64,000 nt of DNA from Spirochaetia bacterium (lineage in GTDB: Bacteria; Spirochaetota; Spirochaetia; UBA9216). This document shows, piece after piece, positions 1,619-10,863 of the stretch. How positions within the stretch are numbered: position 1 is the first letter of the stretch; each line of letters begins with the position of its first letter. Location: assembly GCA_963677925.2 (NCBI GenBank), contig CAXXYH010000003.1, positions 1,248,001 to 1,312,000 of the forward strand, given 5' to 3'. Under the pieces are notes generated by a model. That model was not told the DNA's origin, searched no databases, and saw only the letters and a list, made by a program, of their open reading frames with translations. The position numbers and the translations under genes are program-made.

Positions 1619-1653
1619 GAAAAAGGCTGTCCGGAGATTACTCACGGACAGCC
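1619..1653 (-). terminator. Rho-independent terminator of the decarboxylase operon
   Basis: Minus strand AGGCTGTCCG-loop-CGGACAGCCT followed by a T run, about 20 nt after the mmdB stop. Confidence 0.8.
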
Positions 1654-1674
1654 TGAATTGAAACCGTTTTTAAA

Positions 1675-2844
1675 CTAATTAAGCGACAACAGAACACCCG
1701 CAGCAATTGCAGAGCCTATAACTCCGGCTACGTTGGGGCCCATTGCGTTCATAAGCAGGAAGTTGCCCGGATCTTCTTTCTGGCCGACCTTCTGTACTAC
1801 CCGCGCAGCCATCGGTACAGCAGATACTCCTGCGGCTCCGATCATCGGATTGATCTTTCCGCCGCTTATCTTGCTCATCAGCTTTCCAAGCATAACTCCG
1901 CCGCCGGTTCCTACTCCGAATGCTATACATCCGAGTACTATAATGAATATCGTCTCAAATGTAAGGAAGTGGTCGGCTGACATCTTTGAACCTACTGATA
2001 TTCCAAGGAATATCGTTACTATGTTGATAAGCTCGTTCTGGGCTGTCTTTGAAAGCCTGTCTACAACTCCGCATTCCTTGAACAGGTTTCCAAGCATAAG
2101 CATTCCGATAAGCGGTGCTGATGCCGGAATAAGCAGGGCTGTAACTATTGTTGTGATTATCGGGAAAAGAATCTTGGTCCGTTTTGAAACAGGCTTCGGA
2201 TCCTCCATCCTGATAAGTCTTTCCTTCTTGGTTGTAAGAGCCTTGATAATAGGCGGCTGTATAATCGGTACAAGCGCCATATACGTATAGGCTGCTACTG
2301 CAATAGGTCCAAGCAGATGCGGTGCAAGCTTAGATGTGAGATATATAGCTGTAGGACCGTCAGCCCCTCCGATTATTGCGATGGAAGAGGCCTCTGCAAA
2401 GTTGAAGCCCAGATCATGCGCAGCAAGAAAGGGGATTGCTCCAAGAGCCTTGGCTCCAAGCAGGGTTATAAATATACCAAGCTGGGCAGCTGCTCCCAGA
2501 AGAAAGGTCTGCGGCTTGCCCAGAAGCGGTCCGAAGTCCGTCATCGCTCCGATTCCCATGAAGATAATCGGCGGGAACAGTCCAAGCTGAACACCCTGAT
2601 AAAAGTAATATATAAGTCCGCCGGCCTGGTCTCCGATTGGTCCTTCCAAAAGCCCTGTAAGCGGAAGGTTTACCAGTATTGCTCCGAATCCTATCGGGAT
2701 AAGCAGCAGCGGCTCATAACCCTTTGCTATTGCAAGGTAAACAAGCAGACAGCCGATTGCAATCATTACCAGGTTCTGCCAGGTGATTGCCGTGAAGGCG
2801 GTGCTGCTTAGAAATCTTAATATTAGATCTACGAAATTCACCAA
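1675..2844 (-). CDS. mmdB: Na+-translocating decarboxylase beta subunit (OadB/MmdB/GcdB family)
   Basis: Motifs [42 protein letters not shown] and [12 protein letters not shown]; highly hydrophobic. Confidence 0.95.
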
Positions 2845-2853
2845 ATCCCTCCG

Positions 2854-3330
2854 TTAGCCGATGTCTACAAGCGGCTGTCCTTCGGTTACGTTTGTACCCG
2901 GAGTTACATGGATGGCGTTTACTGTACCGGCGTTGCTTGCAAATACTTCAATGTCCATCTTCATTGCTTCCATTATCAGAAGAAGATCTCCCTTGGCTAC
3001 GCTTGCGCCCTGGGCTACCTTGATTTCCTTGATTGTTCCTGTTATTGCAGCCTTCTCGGTTCCGGCTCCGGCTGCTACAGGGGCGGCGGCTGGTGCCGGC
3101 GCGGCGGCTGCGGGAGAGGGTGCTACAGCTGCCGGTGCAGGCGCTGCCGGTGCAGCAGGAGCTGCAGGCGCAGCGGGCGCTGCTACAGGAGCTGCTGTTG
3201 CTCCTGCAGGGGTTGCAAGGCTTACAAGGTAACTATCGCCTTCATGCTCAATTGTAAGGACATTTCCGTTTCTTGTTACGTTTATGTCGTAAAGGGTTCC
3301 TTCATATTCAAACTTAATATTCTTGCTCAT
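2854..3330 (-). CDS. mmdC: Biotin carboxyl carrier (gamma) subunit
   Basis: EAMKM biotinylation motif near the C-terminus; Ala/Pro-rich linker. Confidence 0.93.
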   Translation of the reverse strand: MSKNIKFEYEGTLYDINVTRNGNVLTIEHEGDSYLVSLATPAGATAAPVAAPAAPAAPAAPAAPAPAAVAPSPAAAAPAPAAAPVAAGAGTEKAAITGTIKEIKVAQGASVAKGDLLLIMEAMKMDIEVFASNAGTVNAIHVTPGTNVTEGQPLVDIG

Positions 3331-3335
3331 AACTC

Positions 3336-3722
3336 TTATACTCCTGGTGCTTTTCTTGTGATTTTATTGTTTGCGACCCACGGGTCATACTTTGCTGCTC
3401 CCGCTGAACTCCATCCTGAAGCCTTTGGGGCATTCTGCTCATCTTCCTCAGCTGCCAGAAACGCTGATACCGCAGCCGAAAGCCATTTCGCGTTATCGGC
3501 CATTGTAGCAGTTGCTGCTGCAACTATTACTGGCAGGGGCAGGCCGCCGCTCTTCTTTGCTGAAGATGTCCCGGCAGATTTCGGCGCTTTGCTTTTGGCT
3601 GTATCACCGTCTGCAAATTTCTTTATCAGAACCATCAGCAGACTCAGAAGGACCAACAGTGTAAACACTATCAGTATTCCAAGTATTGATGTCATAACAC
3701 TGTAAATAAATTCTTCCTGCAT
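3336..3722 (-). CDS. mmdD: OadG/MmdD-family membrane anchor (delta) subunit
   Basis: Single N-terminal TM helix (ILGILIVFTLLVLLSLL), an 'IVAAA' segment and a C-terminal W-containing motif; lies between the alpha and biotin-carrier genes. Confidence 0.8.
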   Translation of the reverse strand: MQEEFIYSVMTSILGILIVFTLLVLLSLLMVLIKKFADGDTAKSKAPKSAGTSSAKKSGGLPLPVIVAAATATMADNAKWLSAAVSAFLAAEEDEQNAPKASGWSSAGAAKYDPWVANNKITRKAPGV

Positions 3723-3737
3723 AAAACTCTCCGCCTC

Positions 3738-5288
3738 CTACAGTGGTATATTGCCGTGTTTCTTGGCAGGTCTGTCTTCACGCTTTTTGATGTTGATTTC
3801 AAGCGCTCTGATGAGTTCTGCACGGGTGTATTCGGGGTCGATTATGTCATCTACAAGACCTAGGCCTGCGGCTACGTAGGGGTTCATGAACTCTGTCTGG
3901 AACTCTGCTATCTTTTCCTGTCTCTTTGCTTCAGGATCCGATGCTGAGTTGATGTCCTTTCTGAATATGATGTTTGCTGCGCCCTCTGCTCCCATTACTG
4001 CTATTTCTGCTGTCGGGTATGCAAGGACTCTGTCATATCCAAGAGACTTGGATGACATTGCTATCATTGAACCGCCGTAGGACTTTCTCATAATCAGTGA
4101 AATCTTGGGCACTGTCGCCTCTGCTATTGCGTAGAGGATCTTTGCTCCGTGTCTGATGATTCCGCCGTGCTCCTGGGCAACGCCGGGAAGGTAGCCGGGG
4201 ACATCAACAAGTGTGATTACCGGAATATTGAAAGCATCACAGAAGCGGATGAACCTTGCTCCCTTATCTGATGAGTTGATATCAAGTGAGGCAGCCATGA
4301 ACTTGGGCTGGTTTGCAAAGATACCTACAGTGCGGCCGTTGAGTTTTGCAAAACCTACTACTACGCTTTTTGCGAAGTCTTCCTGTACTTCAAGAAATGA
4401 ACCTGCGTCAAAGGCGCTTCCGATTATGTCGCGTACATCGTAGGGCTTTCTTGCCTCTTCGGGGATGATCGACATGATTTCGGGTGTGGTTCTTTCAAGT
4501 GAATCTGTACAGGCACTTACCGGCGGCTGCTCTGTGTTGTTTGAAGGCAGGTAGTCCATAAGTCTTCTGATGAAATCAAAACATTCCTGCTCGGATGAAA
4601 AACGGAAGTGGGCGACTCCGCTTTTTGCACAGTGAGCTGATGCTCCGCCGAGGTCTTCGTGGCTGATTACCTCACCGGTTACTGTCTTTATTACATCCGG
4701 ACCGGTGATGTACATGTGACTTGAACCGTCTACCATGAATATGAAGTCGGTGATGGCCGGTGAGTAAACTGCACCTCCGGCACAGGGACCGAGTATTACT
4801 GAAAACTGGGGGATAACTCCTGATGAAAGGGTGTTATTCCTGAAAATTTTGGCGTATCCGTTGAGTGAGAGTATTCCCTCCTGGATTCTTGCTCCGCCTG
4901 AATCGTTGACCTGGATAAACGGTGAACCGTTTTTTAGTGCAAGGCTCTGGGCCTCTGCAATCTTTTCGGCATGCATTTCTCCAAGTGAACCGCCGAGAAC
5001 GGTAAAATCCTGGGCTGACAGGAATACCTGCTTGCCGTTCATCTTGCCTGTTCCGGTTACGACTCCGTCGCCGGCAAACTTGTTTTTATCCATGCCGAAC
5101 TGACTGGTGCGGGTCTGGATGTATGCCTGGCTTTCAACGAAACTTCCCTCATCCAGAAGTCCGGTGATCCTTTCTCTGGCGGTAAATTTCCCTTTATCAT
5201 GCTGGGCTTTGATTCTGGCGTCGCCGCCGCCCTTCTGCATTTTTGCTCTGAAGTCTTTAAACTCCTGAAGCCGCTCATTGTTATTCAT
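3738..5288 (-). CDS. mmdA: Acyl-CoA carboxyltransferase, (methyl)malonyl-CoA decarboxylase alpha subunit
   Basis: Motifs QDFTVLGGSLG, DSGGARIQEG, GPCAGGAVYSPA, DVPGYLPGVAQEHGGIIRHGAK and C-terminal KKHGNIPL. Confidence 0.93.
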   Translation of the reverse strand: MNNNERLQEFKDFRAKMQKGGGDARIKAQHDKGKFTARERITGLLDEGSFVESQAYIQTRTSQFGMDKNKFAGDGVVTGTGKMNGKQVFLSAQDFTVLGGSLGEMHAEKIAEAQSLALKNGSPFIQVNDSGGARIQEGILSLNGYAKIFRNNTLSSGVIPQFSVILGPCAGGAVYSPAITDFIFMVDGSSHMYITGPDVIKTVTGEVISHEDLGGASAHCAKSGVAHFRFSSEQECFDFIRRLMDYLPSNNTEQPPVSACTDSLERTTPEIMSIIPEEARKPYDVRDIIGSAFDAGSFLEVQEDFAKSVVVGFAKLNGRTVGIFANQPKFMAASLDINSSDKGARFIRFCDAFNIPVITLVDVPGYLPGVAQEHGGIIRHGAKILYAIAEATVPKISLIMRKSYGGSMIAMSSKSLGYDRVLAYPTAEIAVMGAEGAANIIFRKDINSASDPEAKRQEKIAEFQTEFMNPYVAAGLGLVDDIIDPEYTRAELIRALEINIKKREDRPAKKHGNIPL

Positions 5289-5350
5289 TCTAAGCTCCTG
5301 AATTTCCCAAAAAATTGTGAAAGAATGTAATTTAATTCTTAATACTCAAA

Positions 5351-5376
5351 TTATCCGTAATATAGATTACGGATAA
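5351..5376. other. Intercistronic hairpin between madM and mmdA
   Basis: TTATCCGTAAT-atag-ATTACGGATAA, an 11-bp perfect inverted repeat without a clear U-tract; possible mRNA stabiliser or processing site. Confidence 0.5.
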
Positions 5377-5404
5377 TCAGATTTCCATTTATATACTAAA
5401 CTTA

Positions 5405-6166
5405 CTAGAAAATAGCGTTAACTATCAGATACCCTACTGAAGGACAAAGAAGTGTTCCAAGTCCTGTATAGAAAGTTGCAGTCATTGCACCGTAGGGAAC
5501 AAGCTTGATATCGGTAGCCGCAAGTCCGCCTGCAACACCGCTGGTTGTTCCGATAATTCCGCCGTATACCATTGCTGTAGTCGGGTTATCAAGACCGATC
5601 TTCTTGGCAATGAGCGGTGTCATAATCATTGTAAGAACAGACTTAACAACACCTGCTGCAACAGACAGGGCAACAACCGAAGAACTGACGCCCAGGGCAT
5701 CACCTGTAACAGGACCTACAATGAAGGTAACTGTACCTGCACCGATTGTTGTGAGTTCTTTAGGATCAACAAAGCCGAGTATACGGGCAATTATGACTCC
5801 TACTACGAATGAGAATATTACTCCTATAAAGAGCGATACAACGCCTGCCAATCCTGCTTTTTTAAGATTCTCCATCTTAACACCATATGCTGTTGATACA
5901 ATGGTGTAGTCTCTGAGGGCACTTCCTCCAAGTATGAGAAAACCTGCAAAAAGAGGCAGATCAGCAAGACCTTTTTTTCCGCCGGTGAATTTACCGGCAA
6001 CATATGCAAGAATAAGGGCAAGTATGATTGCAAAAGCAGATCCCATCTTTCCCTGTTTGATCATTTTTGCTACATAGTAAGCAAGAAGCATCGCAAGAGC
6101 GACAAAACCGAAAGCGAGGACAAGGTGATCACGTCCCATGATACTGTTCATTATTTTTGCAATCAT
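5405..6166 (-). CDS. madM: Malonate transporter subunit MadM
   Basis: Motifs GSAFAIILAL, GGKKGLAD, GGSALRD, GTVTFIVGPVTG, GTTSGVAGGLAATD and LVPYGAMTATFYTG. Confidence 0.92.
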   Translation of the reverse strand: MIAKIMNSIMGRDHLVLAFGFVALAMLLAYYVAKMIKQGKMGSAFAIILALILAYVAGKFTGGKKGLADLPLFAGFLILGGSALRDYTIVSTAYGVKMENLKKAGLAGVVSLFIGVIFSFVVGVIIARILGFVDPKELTTIGAGTVTFIVGPVTGDALGVSSSVVALSVAAGVVKSVLTMIMTPLIAKKIGLDNPTTAMVYGGIIGTTSGVAGGLAATDIKLVPYGAMTATFYTGLGTLLCPSVGYLIVNAIF

Positions 6167-6540
6167 ACTTCTTCTCCTTTATCTTTACCAAGTTTGGCTA
6201 CTAATGGTACAAGAAACAGTGAAGCTATAGTTGCAATGCCTCCGGCCAGAAATGCAACCGCACCGCCGTCAACTGCAGCTACAACATTCTGGGATGCTGC
6301 CATAGCAACAACAACCGGAATGTAGATAGAACTCAGAAAAAGTATTCCGTTTTCAGTTTTTGGACTGAAACCGCCCTTTTTTGATTTTTGAACTCTTGCA
6401 GTAACAATAACCAGAAGAAGCATTGCTATACCTACACCGCCGACATTACCCCCGATGCCGATTACCGCACCAAGAATTCTGCCGATGAAATTTCCGACAA
6501 AGTAACAGGCTGCTACTATTCCAAGGCCGTATATTTCCAT
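6163..6540 (-). CDS. madL: Malonate transporter subunit MadL
   Basis: MEIYG start, NVGGVGIAMLLL and YIPVVVAMAASQNV; 4-nt overlap with madM. Confidence 0.92.
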   Translation of the reverse strand: MEIYGLGIVAACYFVGNFIGRILGAVIGIGGNVGGVGIAMLLLVIVTARVQKSKKGGFSPKTENGILFLSSIYIPVVVAMAASQNVVAAVDGGAVAFLAGGIATIASLFLVPLVAKLGKDKGEEV

Positions 6541-6579
6541 ATCCTTTTCTCCTTAAACTTAAATTTGGTTTTAATAGTT

Positions 6580-7803
6580 TTATTTTTTGTCGAAGACAAC
6601 TCCGCTGTTCAGCAGTTCTTCAACTTTTTCTTTTGAATATCCGAGTTCATTCTGCAGATATTCAATTGTGTGCTCCCCAAGTCCGGGAGCCGGTGTTCTG
6701 ACTGTACCGGGAGTTTCCGTCATTTTAAACGGAGATCCGGCCATAGTTACTTTACCAACTCCGGGCTGTTCAACATCAACTATCATTTCGCGGTAAAGCA
6801 GGTTCGGGTCTTTTACAACCTTATCAATTGTGTTCAATGGTGAATACGGCAGGCCGTTTTCATCAAGAAGCTTGATCCATTCTTCGGATGTCTTCTTTTT
6901 CATTTCAACATCCAGAATTCTGACCAGTTCATCTCGGTTCTGTGTTCTGAGAGGATTAGTTTTGAAAAGTTCATGATCAGTCAGATCTTCTCTTTCAATA
7001 AGTGTACAGAATTTCTTCCAGAGAGAATCATTACCGATAGGTGTTATAACCCAGCTGCCGTCACTTGTTTCAAATGCCTGAAACGGAGTTATGGTCGGGT
7101 GAGCACTTCCGAGAGGTACGGGAATTTCACCTTTGGCAGTGTATCTGACAATTGCATTCTCAAGAATGTACACAAGACCGTCTACCATGGAAATATCTAT
7201 ATGCTGTCCTTCGCCGGTTCGGTTTTTATGCTGCAGAGCTGCAAGAATGCCGATCGCACCCTGATGCCCTGCAACTACATCACCTACAGACGAGCCTACA
7301 CGTACCGGAGCTCCGCCGAGGGGTCCTGTGATACTCATCAAACCGCTGAATCCCTGTGCAACCATGTCGTATGCCGGACGGGTTGCATACTCGGGAAGAG
7401 CATCATGTCCGAATCCGCAGATTGAGCAATAAATAATTCCGGGATTTATTTTTTTTAATTCTTCAAATGAGAAACCAAGTTTTCTCATGGTTGTCGGACG
7501 GTAGTTTTCAACTACGATATCCGCATCCTTAATCATGTCCGTCAGCAGAGCCTTACCTTCATCTTTTTTAAGATCAACACAAATACTCTTTTTATTTCTG
7601 TTAATACTGATGAAGTAGCCGCTCTGCTTACCGTCGCCTTCCTGTTCATCGATAAAGGGTCCGAAAGCCCTTGAATCATCACCGATAGGGGGTTCAACTT
7701 TTACAACATCAGCCCCCATATCTGCCAGAATCATCGTGCAGAACGGAGCAGCAAGTACATGACTAAGATCGACTATTTTAATTCCTTCCAATGCCTTTTT
7801 CAT
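6580..7803 (-). CDS. Family III (CaiB/BaiF/Frc) CoA transferase, candidate acetyl-CoA:malonate CoA transferase
   Basis: Motifs LEGIKIVDLSHVLAAP, LADMGADVVKVE, NRNKKSI, VENYRP, GD (catalytic Asp region) and APGLGEHT; SD AGGAGG. Confidence 0.92.
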   Translation of the reverse strand: MKKALEGIKIVDLSHVLAAPFCTMILADMGADVVKVEPPIGDDSRAFGPFIDEQEGDGKQSGYFISINRNKKSICVDLKKDEGKALLTDMIKDADIVVENYRPTTMRKLGFSFEELKKINPGIIYCSICGFGHDALPEYATRPAYDMVAQGFSGLMSITGPLGGAPVRVGSSVGDVVAGHQGAIGILAALQHKNRTGEGQHIDISMVDGLVYILENAIVRYTAKGEIPVPLGSAHPTITPFQAFETSDGSWVITPIGNDSLWKKFCTLIEREDLTDHELFKTNPLRTQNRDELVRILDVEMKKKTSEEWIKLLDENGLPYSPLNTIDKVVKDPNLLYREMIVDVEQPGVGKVTMAGSPFKMTETPGTVRTPAPGLGEHTIEYLQNELGYSKEKVEELLNSGVVFDKK

Positions 7804-7924
7804 AAAGGCCTCCTGTGATTTTTGTTTTCACAAAATCACTTGATCACTAATAAATTGAATTAAACACACTCTTTCACAATGTTATTTTCTTGAAACCTCC
7901 AGGGGCTCTCTTTTTTTTATGAGC

Positions 7925-7959
7925 AAAAAAAAAGAGAAGTATTCTGACACTACTTCTCT
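7925..7959 (-). terminator. Intrinsic terminator/attenuator between hutP and the catabolic genes
   Basis: mRNA reads AGAGAAGUA-GUGUCAGAA-UACUUCUCU-UUUUUUUU (9-bp stem plus U-tract); two UAG triplets overlap its 5' arm. Confidence 0.85.
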
Positions 7960-8029
7960 AATACACGCGTTAATAAAATTTCACTACAGGGACTGAACAC
8001 TAATACACACTAAATTTTTTCAGTCCTGT
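7950..8029 (-). promoter_or_regulatory. Putative HutP-binding UAG-repeat leader
   Basis: Five UAG triplets (plus-strand CTA at 8010, 8000, 7984, 7958, 7950), four of them UAGUG. Two lie in the loop of hairpin ACAGGACUGAA/UUCAGUCCCUGU (7986-8029). Confidence 0.65.
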
Positions 8030-8046
8030 TTATACACAAATAAATA

Positions 8047-8469
8047 TTATTTTAAATGCATAACCCCAAGCGCACACCGCTCATGGTTTGTTATTGGATA
8101 GAAGGCGGAATCACCGTAAATCGCAACAGCAACCCATTCCTCATTGGTAACAATGCCCACCTTAAGTTTCAGGCTGGCCTCTGCCGGAACACTGCTGATA
8201 ACACCGTTAAGCGCTTCAAGGGCAGCATGAAGAACAGCATGAACCTGCGTTCCGGTTTTTTTGATCAATCCATTCTGAAGTGAACAACCGACGATTGATT
8301 TTACAAAACTCTTCTTGATATCGGAGGTCAGACCGGTAATAAAAGTCACCGCAAGTTTTTCCTTTCCGATAGTGTTATTGACTTCGGCCTTAATCTGGCG
8401 CTCTTCTTCTTCATCAGACATAGCAGCAAGAAGTGCCATTTTTCCAATACGATCCGTATTCAACTTCAT
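8047..8469 (-). CDS. hutP: HutP-family RNA-binding antiterminator
   Basis: 140 aa; RIGKMALL, HAVLHAALEALNGV, EWVAVAIYG and HERCALGVMHL parallel Bacillus HutP (RIGRLSVL, HALYHATMEALHGV, DWIAVSLYG, HETFGVGINHI, recalled from memory). Confidence 0.88.
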   Translation of the reverse strand: MKLNTDRIGKMALLAAMSDEEEERQIKAEVNNTIGKEKLAVTFITGLTSDIKKSFVKSIVGCSLQNGLIKKTGTQVHAVLHAALEALNGVISSVPAEASLKLKVGIVTNEEWVAVAIYGDSAFYPITNHERCALGVMHLK

Positions 8470-8477
8470 GTTTAGTC

Positions 8478-8507
8478 ATACTACACTCGGAAATGCACAA
8501 TTGTCAA
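8478..8507 (-). promoter_or_regulatory. Sigma70 promoter of the hutP operon
   Basis: TTGACA (8507-8502), 18-nt spacer, TAGTAT (8483-8478); 8 nt upstream of the hutP ATG. Confidence 0.7.
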
Positions 8508-8554: not shown

Positions 8555-10765
8555 TCAACCATCAAAATTTCTATATTCACGGCTGAACCTGCCGGGTATT
8601 GCAATACAGAACGATGTTCCCTGCTTAGGTTTTGAATCAACAGTAATACTGCCGTCCAGGGCATCAACAATATTTTTCACAATGGCAAGACCAAGGCCCA
8701 TACCGCGGTGTATTTTTGTATAAATATTTTCAAGCTGCTGAAAGGGCTCAAAAATCAGAGGTAAGTCTTCCTTTTTAATTCCTGGTCCTTCATCTGAAAT
8801 TTTAAGGATGAGTTCATCCGCCAATTCAGTAATAGTACATATGATATCACCCTTATCAGAATATTTTATTGCGTTAGTAATAAGATTGTTAACAACCTGG
8901 GCAATACGGGTCTCATCTCCGTAAAAATATCCCGACTCATATTTTTTAAAAACTGACAGTTCAAGGTCCTTCATTTCCATAGAATCTCTGAAAATTTCGG
9001 AGGCAAGCATTGCCAGATTATCAATTCTGAAAAACTGCTTATTAATGGAAATTTTCCCGATACTGAACTGAGTGAAGTTCAGAAGATCCTCTATTATTGT
9101 CTTCAGGTTTTCAGAGGAAACGAGGGCAAGTTTATACCACTCACGTTCTTTATCGGTGAAAGAAGCTCCGGAGATCAGGGTGAGCATTCCGAAAACCCCG
9201 TTAAGAGGTGTCCGGAGTTCATGGCTGATATTTGCAAGAAAATCATTTTTTACTCTAAGAGCTGTTTCCGCCTTAATTCTTGCATGCTCCATCTGTTCGG
9301 ATATTTTTATTTTTTCAGTTACATCGTGTATGATCGCATATAGATATTCATGATTGCCTGTGCTAAGCCGTCCGCTGAATATCTCGACATGACGTGTGTC
9401 TTTCTTTGCAAGCTTTATTCTCATAGTCCTGCCGGATAATTCATCAAACTTGAAAGAACCTTCTTCAACATTCTCTTCATCGGCAAGCAGATTGTAAAGC
9501 GACAGATTTTTCAGAGCTTTTTCAGGATATCCAAGATAATCCATTGCAGCCTGATTCAAATCGATAATTCTGCTTGTAACCGGTTCGAACAGAATGATGA
9601 TTGATGTATTGTCATAAAAGAGACTTCTGTATTTCATTTCACTCTGACGAAGAGCTGACTCAGCCTTTTTCCTGATATTAATATTTATGAGTGAAAATAG
9701 AAGTAAAACTGCCATTATACTGAAAATGCTTACCGAACTTAGCACCAGAACCTTATTTTCCCTGAGAAAACTGTAAGGTCTGTTTATGATTTCAGAGTCG
9801 TTTGGCAGTTTTCTCAAACTGACTCCGAATCGCTTAAGTTCCTGAAAATCAAATATATAATGATTTTCAGCATCGCTCCGTATTGGCATTGAAGCCGAAG
9901 ATTCGCCGTTCAGGATTTTAAGGGCAGTTTCTGCGGCACTGATGGCCTGCTCATAATGACTAATCACCCTGCCTCCGAAAACACCGTCGCCAAAACCATG
10001 ATACCAGAGATGAAAGAGCGGGATTTTCAAATTCTCATAGATTATATTGAGGCTCTCATTGAAGAGCATGTTATTACCTTCACTATCAGTATAAGCAGAC
10101 AGGAGCAGTATACTTGTATCTCTTCCCAGACCGGAAAGAACCGCTGCAAATTCCTGCCATGAATAATCTTTAAGAGATATCGTTCTGAACTTATATGAAG
10201 GATACTCGCCCTGAAGCTCATTGAAAGCTCTTTCATCAGCAGTTCCGCTGGTAGTTGCATCTGAAATTGCTGCAATGGTTTCAGTTGAAGGGAAAAGAGA
10301 AATCATCAGCTCAATAGTATCCTTCATTGAGACGGCTTCAATGAACCCTGTAACCAGCGGATCATCATTATAACTCAGCGCCTGAGCGATATCATTAACC
10401 CCGAAAAACACTATCGGAACATCTTCAAAAAACTCATCCCGCATACTCATGCAGAAAGCAAGCGCATTATCATCAGCGGTGATTACCAAATCATATTTTG
10501 GAACATGCTGAAACTTATAGGTAATAAAATCTTTCCTGAGATTGATGACCTGTCCTGTATTAAAACGCTTTGAATCCAGGAATTCCATATCCAGAAGTAC
10601 ATGCTGCTTATCCAGTACAGAACGCAATCCGTCAATCTGATGATTGAAGGTTGGAAATGAGGGATTATATGAACTAATAAATAGGATTCTTTTAAAATGA
10701 TCATGAGCAGAGGCCGGCAGACATAACGTCAGCATAATCAGAATCAGGACACACTTCTTAAGCAT
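8555..10765 (-). CDS. Sensor histidine kinase (periplasmic SBP-like sensor, TM, PAS, HisKA/HATPase)
   Basis: FLANISHELRTPLN H-box, NLITNAIKY, DEGPGI and GMGLGLAI; signal peptide. Alternative start 10795. Confidence 0.92.
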   Translation of the reverse strand: MLKKCVLILIMLTLCLPASAHDHFKRILFISSYNPSFPTFNHQIDGLRSVLDKQHVLLDMEFLDSKRFNTGQVINLRKDFITYKFQHVPKYDLVITADDNALAFCMSMRDEFFEDVPIVFFGVNDIAQALSYNDDPLVTGFIEAVSMKDTIELMISLFPSTETIAAISDATTSGTADERAFNELQGEYPSYKFRTISLKDYSWQEFAAVLSGLGRDTSILLLSAYTDSEGNNMLFNESLNIIYENLKIPLFHLWYHGFGDGVFGGRVISHYEQAISAAETALKILNGESSASMPIRSDAENHYIFDFQELKRFGVSLRKLPNDSEIINRPYSFLRENKVLVLSSVSIFSIMAVLLLFSLININIRKKAESALRQSEMKYRSLFYDNTSIIILFEPVTSRIIDLNQAAMDYLGYPEKALKNLSLYNLLADEENVEEGSFKFDELSGRTMRIKLAKKDTRHVEIFSGRLSTGNHEYLYAIIHDVTEKIKISEQMEHARIKAETALRVKNDFLANISHELRTPLNGVFGMLTLISGASFTDKEREWYKLALVSSENLKTIIEDLLNFTQFSIGKISINKQFFRIDNLAMLASEIFRDSMEMKDLELSVFKKYESGYFYGDETRIAQVVNNLITNAIKYSDKGDIICTITELADELILKISDEGPGIKKEDLPLIFEPFQQLENIYTKIHRGMGLGLAIVKNIVDALDGSITVDSKPKQGTSFCIAIPGRFSREYRNFDG

Positions 10766-10863
10766 ATTTAAATTATATGAAAGATGAAAGCGCAATGCAA
10801 TTATTATTTCATTTCTTCCGGCGACCCTTGAATTCCATTAAAAATAATCTGGTTTAAATTAAT

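Follow-up and report, generated by a model that had tools for sequence, protein, structure and literature searches.

A predicted eight-gene malonate-fermentation operon in a Spirochaetia bacterium, with malonyl-CoA as candidate substrate of its putative Na+-translocating decarboxylase

The methylmalonyl-CoA decarboxylase of Veillonella also accepts malonyl-CoA, and for Sporomusa malonica Dehning and Schink reportedly described in 1994 the transfer of CoA from acetyl-CoA to malonate followed by an avidin-sensitive malonyl-CoA decarboxylase. Passages of a review cover four Na+-translocating decarboxylases, acting on oxaloacetate, methylmalonyl-CoA, glutaconyl-CoA and malonate carried by an acyl carrier protein (ACP), and the malonate Na+ pump presented in those passages is the ACP-based system alone (PMC8085960). 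In the literature searched, whose coverage left out most subscription journals, no assignment of genes to a malonate pathway composed of a CoA-transferase, MadLM or MatC, and an Mmd decarboxylase was found. The stretch of DNA analysed here (the window) comprises 64,000 nucleotides (nt) from a Spirochaetia bacterium, positions 1248001-1312000 of contig C3 (CAXXYH010000003.1, assembly GCA_963677925.2), in a genome of 5.04 Mb that is held in 4 contigs and is 99.63% complete. It carries an eight-gene operon that probably serves malonate fermentation, with predicted uptake by MadLM, CoA transfer, malonyl-CoA decarboxylation and Na+ pumping.

In the proposed pathway MadLM, whose family is recognised by sequence, would import malonate, its presumed substrate, together with Na+. 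A family III CoA-transferase would move CoA from acetyl-CoA to malonate with Asp175 as putative covalent site, and the beta subunit of the decarboxylase, assigned by its family and its Na+-site residues, would decarboxylate carboxybiotin and export Na+. The net reaction would be malonate to acetate and CO2, with the Na+ gradient as the sole energy gain. Acetyl-CoA, the product of the decarboxylase, appears to be the only donor that would close the cycle without further enzymes. A cycle of malonate, acetyl-CoA and malonyl-CoA with Na+ export had already been suggested in the first-pass annotation of this DNA; all comparative tests fit it, and they amount to support from genomic context rather than proof. 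Three elements would now be added to that reading: a HutP-type regulatory front end, the recent copying of the decarboxylase module, and a sister pathway that independently seems to point to malonyl-CoA. The genes of the operon are as follows (aa, amino acids).

8047 to 8469, minus strand: HutP-family protein, 140 aa, first gene of the operon; PF09021, 108.9 bits (cut-off 25)
6580 to 7803, minus strand: family III CoA-transferase, 407 aa, candidate acetyl-CoA:malonate CoA-transferase; PF02515 (CoA_transf_3), 424.9 bits
6163 to 6540, minus strand: MadL, predicted malonate transporter subunit, 125 aa; TIGR00807 equivalog, 127.8 bits (cut-off 113.45)
5405 to 6166, minus strand: MadM, predicted malonate/Na+ symporter subunit, 253 aa; TIGR00808 equivalog, 307.7 bits (cut-off 236.3); 4-nt overlap with madL
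3738 to 5288, minus strand: carboxyltransferase alpha subunit, MmdA/PCC-beta/12S type, 516 aa; PF01039 (Carboxyl_trans), 633 bits
3336 to 3722, minus strand: putative small membrane-anchor subunit, delta/gamma type, 128 aa; weak OAD_gamma match, hydrophobic N-terminal helix
2854 to 3330, minus strand: biotin carrier, 158 aa; PF00364, 59.6 bits; Ala/Pro linker, EAMKM near the C-terminus
1675 to 2844, minus strand: beta subunit, Na+-translocating carboxybiotin decarboxylase by family, 389 aa; PF03977 (OAD_beta), 539 bits

The order of the operon is hutP-like gene, leader, CoA-transferase, madL, madM, carboxyltransferase, small subunit, biotin carrier and beta subunit. The seven genes from the CoA-transferase to the beta subunit, all on the minus strand (7803..1675), lie exactly where the first-pass annotation had placed them, and the terminator that it had described as closing the unit is present as a hairpin with U5 at 1654..1619. 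What needs amending is the word minimal, applied there to the cycle: the HutP-family gene (8469..8047) and a leader lie further 5', which brings the operon to eight genes, and the decarboxylase genes are a recent copy. Gaps across the seven genes range from -4 to 39 nt, with the one exception of the 116 nt between madM and mmdA. At this spacer the HutP-transferase-MadLM module meets the duplicated decarboxylase module, and the hairpin within it lies just 5' of position 5267, where the duplication has its boundary. The control elements are listed below.

8478 to 8507, minus strand: promoter-like site TTGACA-18-TAGTAT, 5' of the HutP-like gene; a consensus match only, at 10 of 12 positions
7804 to 8046, minus strand: leader RNA, 243 nt, with five UAGUG and one UAGAG
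7924 to 7959, minus strand: leader terminator, 9-bp hairpin (7959..7933) followed by U9 (7932..7924)
7815 to 7839, minus strand: conserved hairpin directly 5' of the transferase Shine-Dalgarno sequence AGGAGG (7814..7809)
5289 to 5404, minus strand: madM-mmdA spacer; contains a perfect hairpin of 13 bp that lacks a U-run
1619 to 1654, minus strand: intrinsic terminator at the operon end, hairpin with U5, -23.8 kcal/mol

The fold of the operon-end terminator has a z-score of -4.17, and 0 of 200 shuffles fold equally well. TTGACA-18-TAGTAT ranks first among the 16 promoter-like sites found; because it stands just 9 nt 5' of the ATG at 8469, either the true start of the hutP-like gene or the promoter is uncertain. 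A weak promoter-like site was also seen within the madM-mmdA spacer (5387..5359).

Whether another route could account for the decarboxylase was examined across the whole genome. MdcA/MadA (PF16957) gave no match over cut-off, the sole match being partial (19.8 bits), and the malonate-decarboxylase ACP (PF06857) gave no match, on which grounds an ACP-type malonate system elsewhere in the genome was rejected. There was no match to methylmalonyl-CoA mutase (PF01642), for which the control was positive in 8 of 14 genomes, and the best score for the epimerase (TIGR03081), 44.9 bits, is under the cut-off of 114.95. A soluble MCD-family decarboxylase (PF05292) was not found in the genome either; the control was also silent, so this result carries little weight. 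The absence of ACP-based decarboxylase genes and of mutase and epimerase, noted in the first-pass annotation for the window, thus extends to the entire genome, including the search for mdc/madA that had been proposed there. Neither the ACP route nor the succinate-to-propionate route is therefore supported in this organism. That the genes encode a classical methylmalonyl-CoA decarboxylase, of the kind that serves the succinate-to-propionate pathway in Veillonella or Propionigenium, agrees with their subunit composition and family matches. A genome of this completeness without mutase or epimerase over cut-off speaks against it, as does the finding that mutase-linked Mmd clusters in other genomes are separate paralogues; this explanation was rejected on the missing mutase and epimerase and is scarcely credible here.

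The subunits themselves point to an acyl-CoA decarboxylase of the Na+-pumping kind. The beta subunit scores 520 bits against TIGR01109 (cut-off 190.6) and 408 bits against Salmonella OadB (6iva), and it is identical to OadB at D203, Y229, N373, G377, S382 and R389, which we take to be residues of Na+ translocation. It reaches 170 bits against the MadB model TIGR03136, under the cut-off of 596.9. The small subunit matches its families weakly (PF04277, 26 bits with a cut-off of 27; TIGR01195, 31.4 with 36.05). The best matches of the alpha subunit in the Protein Data Bank (PDB) are 1vrg, 1x0u and the 12S subunit 1on3. The complex would work like a Na+-translocating acyl-CoA decarboxylase, with part of the Mmd definition present.

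Glutaconyl-CoA is a further substrate to consider, for a decarboxylase serving the 2-hydroxyacyl-CoA dehydratase cluster of this genome. The genome does have such an HgdAB-like cluster, and it includes a second family III transferase. Its distance of about 140 kb, without linkage to the operon, counts against this proposal, as does the PCC-beta/MmdA-like character of the alpha subunit, which has no glutaconyl-CoA decarboxylase chain among its 44 PDB matches at E <= 1e-30. A glutaconyl-CoA decarboxylase was rejected on these family grounds and is highly improbable. The dehydratase cluster (C3:1390000-1406000), in which the second family III CoA-transferase sits, also contains two HGD-D subunits, an activator ATPase, a thiolase, a 3-hydroxyacyl-CoA dehydrogenase, an enoyl-CoA hydratase, an OYE-type reductase and a MatC_N/CitMHS carrier.

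The substrate of the pump is narrowed by a duplicate of its genes. Carboxyl_trans and OAD_beta are each present in two copies in the genome, and window positions 5267..1620 are 99.0% identical in nucleotide sequence over 3648 bp to contig C3 at about 362.7-366.3 kb (L002 8688..12335), where a second decarboxylase cluster lies 0.9 Mb from the operon. The duplicated segment begins at codon 8 of the alpha gene and ends past the operon-end terminator. At the sister locus (C3:354000-372000), mmdA-D-C-B come after genes for an NCS2-family permease and for two small membrane proteins without known family, of 126 and 146 aa, and this side is divergent from genes for a class-III aminotransferase and an aldehyde dehydrogenase. 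All four of the relatives fetched keep the gene order, and their beta subunits are 73-88% identical (tblastn), which indicates that the sister locus is the resident one. The copy in the window would have been grafted behind HutP-transferase-MadLM, or else homogenised with the resident copy.

The aminotransferase of the sister locus scores 530 bits against NF004718 (cut-off 472), and the best model for the 469-aa aldehyde dehydrogenase is the CoA-acylating sulfoacetaldehyde dehydrogenase SauS, at 553.6 bits with a cut-off of 600. Malonate semialdehyde has sulfoacetaldehyde as its sulfonate analogue. A sulfoacetate-CoA ligase is described as partially active on malonate (PMC10413351). Judged from these genes, the sister route most likely runs from beta-alanine to malonate semialdehyde, malonyl-CoA and finally acetyl-CoA with CO2, and the sister locus would probably feed the Na+ pump from beta-alanine (or beta-aminoisobutyrate). 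No description of a route from beta-alanine to a malonyl-CoA Na+ pump was found in the same searched literature. Since two unrelated upstream modules share a 99%-identical decarboxylase, they should deliver the same acyl-CoA; malonyl-CoA satisfies both modules, with methylmalonyl-CoA as the only other candidate.

The operon could accordingly be read as a system for methylmalonate or substituted malonates, in which MadLM takes up methylmalonate, the transferase converts it to methylmalonyl-CoA, the pump yields propionyl-CoA, and the sister locus takes beta-aminoisobutyrate by way of methylmalonate semialdehyde. The pairing of aminotransferase and acylating dehydrogenase suits both substrates, the best family of the alpha subunit is mmdA (TIGR01117, 780 bits), and no sequence feature separates users of malonyl-CoA from users of methylmalonyl-CoA. 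The alpha subunit is 55-57% identical to all four paralogues of Sporomusa rhizae, mutase-linked and transferase-linked alike, and those four are 80-87% identical to one another whichever linkage they have; the decarboxylase thus seems to be recruited locally, without a dedicated malonyl-CoA clade. We nevertheless consider methylmalonate unlikely as the substrate of the system. MadL and MadM both score over the curated NCBIfam cut-offs for malonate-transporter equivalogs, the genome has no epimerase over cut-off (the stereochemical relevance of which is presumed), and related clusters carry carriers of the MatC type, MatC being the other known malonate carrier family. The decarboxylase may well take both malonyl-CoA and methylmalonyl-CoA.

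The nearest solved structures of the operon transferase are human SUGCT (299 bits) and Escherichia coli YfdE (273 bits). Its D175 aligns with the catalytic Asp173 of YfdE (chain residue 193 is native 173), and its G232-S-A-H235 aligns with the GNxH loop, with H235 at the position of His233 and the Asn replaced. In the part of a study devoted to it, YfdE uses acetyl-CoA as CoA donor to a dicarboxylate, oxalate, with Asp173 as the catalytic residue and GNxH as an active-site loop (PMC3720670). The operon transferase thus shares with YfdE and SUGCT the family III fold, the catalytic Asp and the loop His align, and it differs in its GSAH loop and in its genomic context, which is malonate uptake and not oxalyl-CoA decarboxylase. 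This alignment fits an acetyl-CoA:dicarboxylate transferase other than the oxalate enzyme and proves nothing about malonate.

The transferase could instead act on another dicarboxylate (oxalate, succinate, glutarate or mesaconate) or use another CoA donor, in which case there would be no closed cycle of acetyl-CoA and malonyl-CoA. Its best NCBIfam models are indeed the succinyl-CoA:mesaconate, succinate-glutarate and CoA:oxalate transferases, and the scores of 355, 342 and 301 bits are all far under the respective cut-offs of 700, 750 and 522. Homologues at 58-80% identity occur in many anaerobes; several sources label them 'CoA:oxalate CoA-transferase', and some at 58% identity stand in mutase-Mmd clusters. 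Against such a substrate, the GNxH loop of YfdE, an oxalate user, has an Asn that is replaced in the operon protein, no thiamine-dependent oxalyl-CoA decarboxylase is encoded in the operon, the genome has no methylmalonyl-CoA mutase, and acetyl-CoA alone would close the cycle without further enzymes. Another dicarboxylate or donor is in our judgement very unlikely.

The assignment to malonate gains from the company that the transferase and the transporter keep elsewhere. Recurrence was counted over 80 genome-contig loci with a relative of the transferase and 80 metagenome loci kept from a MadM search. The transferase adjoins MadL and MadM in 6 of the 80 genome loci, from Halanaerobium saccharolyticum (two), Thermoanaerobacterium sp. 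DL9XJH110, Peptococcaceae, Peptostreptococcaceae and one unclassified metagenome-assembled genome (MAG), and it is the neighbour of MadM in 6/80 metagenome loci, two of which also have HutP. A survey of synteny had been proposed with the first-pass annotation, and the linkage of transferase and MadLM recurs in both sets. The locus of Thermoanaerobacterium sp. DL9XJH110 continues into mmdA, with the rest of mmdA and the C and B genes on another contig. The order in Sporomusa rhizae is LytS/LytTR-transferase-MmdA-C-B followed by a MatC_N/CitMHS carrier, and in a MAG of the Acidaminococcales a gene for a MatC-like carrier separates mmdB from the transferase gene. The other metagenome MadM loci have as neighbour a MatB-like ligase (19/80), MadA/MdcA (4/80, three with the beta subunit and two with HutP) or none of these three (51/80, many on short contigs). 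MadLM elsewhere stands beside a MatB-like ligase or MadA/MdcA, and the MadLM-adjacent gene is thus typically a malonate-activating enzyme. In L156 and 18 more metagenome loci, the gene directly after MadL-MadM encodes a MatB-like AMP-binding ligase, which is a third pairing of MadLM with an activator.

Five genomes with transferase-linked clusters were searched for full-length MdcA, which was found in 0/5, with only partial matches (positions 136-225 of 546); a mutase is present in four of the five and absent from the Halanaerobium genome. A search for the MadM family in the genus of the Sporomusa rhizae genome gave 0/16 genomes with a silent control, so that this search is unvalidated. In Halanaerobium saccharolyticum (G042; loci L094, L095 and L096) there are two copies of the mmd cluster, both cut off within mmdA by the end of a contig, and the middle of mmdA is on a separate contig of 1 kb; there mmd is not adjacent to the transferase-MadLM unit. 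The decarboxylase appears to be duplicated in this organism too.

Several findings weigh against a dedicated malonate pathway. The transferase is under all seven NCBIfam cut-offs listed for its matching models, and it has GSAH where YfdE has GNxH. A single clade of MadLM-linked transferases was rejected: on a quick tree of 89 homologues with many open forks the members are scattered, and 60 of the 89 have no informative neighbour. Five homologues from Syntrophaceae adjoin methylmalonyl-CoA mutase, four of them also Mmd genes, and ten genes scanned beside five close unlinked homologues form unrelated contexts. The transferase orthogroup is not malonate-specific. The transporter families invite similar caution: MadM is present in just 3/41 relatives, the specificity of MadLM is based on one characterised system, and a MatC-like carrier also occurs in the unrelated 2-hydroxyacyl-CoA dehydratase cluster of this genome. 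For the decarboxylase, the alpha subunit scores 780.1 bits against TIGR01117 (mmdA), under the cut-off of 998.8, and pairwise identities gave no signal in it that would tell malonyl-CoA from methylmalonyl-CoA. Finally, MadLM would spend part of the Na+ gradient on uptake, which makes the net energy yield uncertain.

The front of the operon resembles a known antitermination system. The HutP-like protein scores 39.9 bits against the equivalog NF002838 of histidine-utilisation HutP, under the cut-off of 155. UAG motifs in the leader start at 8012, 8002, 7986, 7960, 7952 and 7849, and the spacing of the repeats is 5-23 nt; UAGUG is observed five times where 0.09 are expected at the rate of the window itself, and five were reached in 0 of 20000 shuffles. 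Two of these UAG motifs reach into the 5' arm of the leader terminator, the fold of which has a z-score of -2.89 with 0 of 200 shuffles folding equally well. Operon expression is probably controlled by HutP-type antitermination with an effector other than that of histidine-utilisation HutP. The HutP-like protein would bind the UAGUG repeats overlapping the 5' arm of the leader terminator, and RNA polymerase would then read through. That malonate is the effector is a guess, and no link between HutP and malonate was found in the literature searched. Bacillus subtilis HutP shares with this arrangement the Pfam family and the position of the regulator gene, which comes first and has a terminator 3' of it, with UAG repeats ahead of that terminator or overlapping it. 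The protein of the operon differs in falling under the HutP equivalog cut-off, and the operon is of the malonate type. UAG repeats in hut mRNA are regularly spaced by 4 nt, unlike those of the leader described here.

This front end is conserved. G001, the second species of the genus, and G005, from another genus of the same family, keep the HutP-like gene 5' of the transferase (99% and 74% identity). G005 has the layout HutP-leader-transferase-MadL-MadM-MmdA with protein identities of 74-85%, and its leader has diverged while retaining five UAGUG, the leader terminator hairpin with U-run and the hairpin 5' of the ribosome-binding site. The last hairpin is nearly invariant between the genome of the window and G005, and the leader box CGTGTATTAG(A/T)GAAGTAGTGT is conserved between the genera. 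As in G005, a terminator lies 3' of the HutP-like gene in L103, L154 and L062. In Sporomusaceae, a HutP-like gene and a terminator precede the transferase in L062 (folded), and HutP-transferase pairs occur in L066, L068 and L072; on the metagenome contigs L103 and L104 a HutP-like gene precedes the transferase-MadLM unit (the terminator was folded for L103). The metagenome contig L154, with a Pfam-confirmed mad cluster of the Malonomonas type, has a HutP-like gene (2779-3225), a terminator and then directly madA. On a second contig, L121, a HutP-family gene (1941-2399) lies inside a mad cluster of the same type. Both clusters contain genes for the beta subunit, biotin ligase, HutP, MadA, ACP, MadC and MadD, and further on MadL and MadM. 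Anaerobic malonate operons may in general be under control of the HutP type.

A wider scheme can be put forward tentatively, as a possibility that we do not favour over its absence. A Na+-pumping malonyl-CoA decarboxylase might be a shared hub with interchangeable feeding modules, one of transferase and MadLM or MatC and one of aminotransferase and SauS-like dehydrogenase that would make malonyl-CoA from beta-alanine, and a so far unrecognised malonate-responsive branch of the HutP family might switch malonate operons, whether CoA-based or ACP-based.

Directly upstream of the operon lies a gene for a sensor histidine kinase with a periplasmic domain like an ABC substrate-binding protein (8555-10795), and directly downstream one for a Cache/GGDEF diguanylate cyclase (3-1556). 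The sensor kinase (8555..10795) was rejected as a component of the system: it is not kept beside the operon in G005, nor on L103, L104, L121 or L154. Compared with window positions 1675-8469, most operon proteins of G001 (locus L088) are 99-100% identical, the lower values being 96% for the small subunit and 84% for the biotin carrier; three flanking proteins (sensor kinase, a 491-aa protein and the GGDEF protein) are 84-87% identical. This contrast suggests either that the operon was exchanged recently or that divergence has been very uneven. The genome also encodes one F-type c subunit of a rotor ring (76 aa) and two V-type subunits (115 and 139 aa), at L191, L192 and L193 on contig C3 near 1058 kb, 134 kb and 200 kb. 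The PLSQTLY and VES motifs of the 139-aa V-type subunit presumably resemble those of Na+-binding V-type K subunits.

If the assignment is true, it would supply genes for a reaction sequence reportedly described in 1994 at the level of enzymes only, and the energy-conserving module would be one that was copied and re-plumbed inside a single genome. The front end would point to a second physiological role of HutP-type antiterminators, and an ATP-free route from malonate to acetyl-CoA by way of malonyl-CoA would be of practical interest for the engineering of malonyl-CoA supply. To our knowledge no sequence-defined family exists for malonate CoA-transferase, EC 2.8.3.3. A table in a 2021 review lists this activity without a KEGG function number (PMC8307300). 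The operon transferase is a concrete candidate gene for this orphan enzyme. A malonyl-CoA-dependent pump would also be a further substrate type beyond the four covered in the review passages (PMC8085960).

Among known systems, the Mad pump of Malonomonas rubra (EC 7.2.4.4), as described in those passages, shares with the operon MadLM uptake, a biotin carrier, a pump of the OAD_beta type and the net reaction of malonate to acetate and CO2 (PMC8085960), and HutP-like genes also occur inside metagenome clusters of the Malonomonas type (L154 Pfam-confirmed). It differs in that the genome of the window lacks MadA/MdcA and ACP over cut-off, in that the carboxyltransferase of the operon is one 516-aa protein of the PCC-beta type where L154 has split MadC and MadD, and in that the proposed thioester carrier would be free CoA, by way of the family III transferase. 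The complex falls outside the Mad system, of which it lacks three defining features (MadA/MdcA, a dedicated ACP and a MadB-type beta subunit). MmdABCDE of Veillonella parvula and Propionigenium modestum (EC 7.2.4.3) shares the alpha subunit, the beta pump, the biotin carrier and a predicted acyl-CoA substrate, and its small anchor has a weakly matched candidate counterpart in the operon. Here, in contrast, no mutase or epimerase over cut-off would supply methylmalonyl-CoA, the genes share their operon with those for a predicted malonate transporter and for a CoA-transferase, and the scores against the alpha and gamma models, 780 and 68 bits, are under the cut-offs of 998.8 and 200. Rhizobial MatABC (MatC carrier, MatB malonyl-CoA synthetase and MatA soluble decarboxylase) likewise leads from malonate through free malonyl-CoA to acetyl-CoA, and its parts recur near genes like those of the operon, as MatB-like ligases beside MadLM in the 19/80 metagenome loci and as MatC-like carriers in transferase-Mmd clusters. 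Malonate activation in the operon would be ATP-free, unlike that of MatABC, because a transferase is used, and its decarboxylase is a predicted biotin-dependent Na+ pump of the membrane whereas MatA is a soluble enzyme of the MCD family. The CoA-dependent route of Sporomusa malonica, as it is reportedly described, shares the chemistry proposed for the operon, and its relative Sporomusa rhizae has a transferase-Mmd-MatC cluster.

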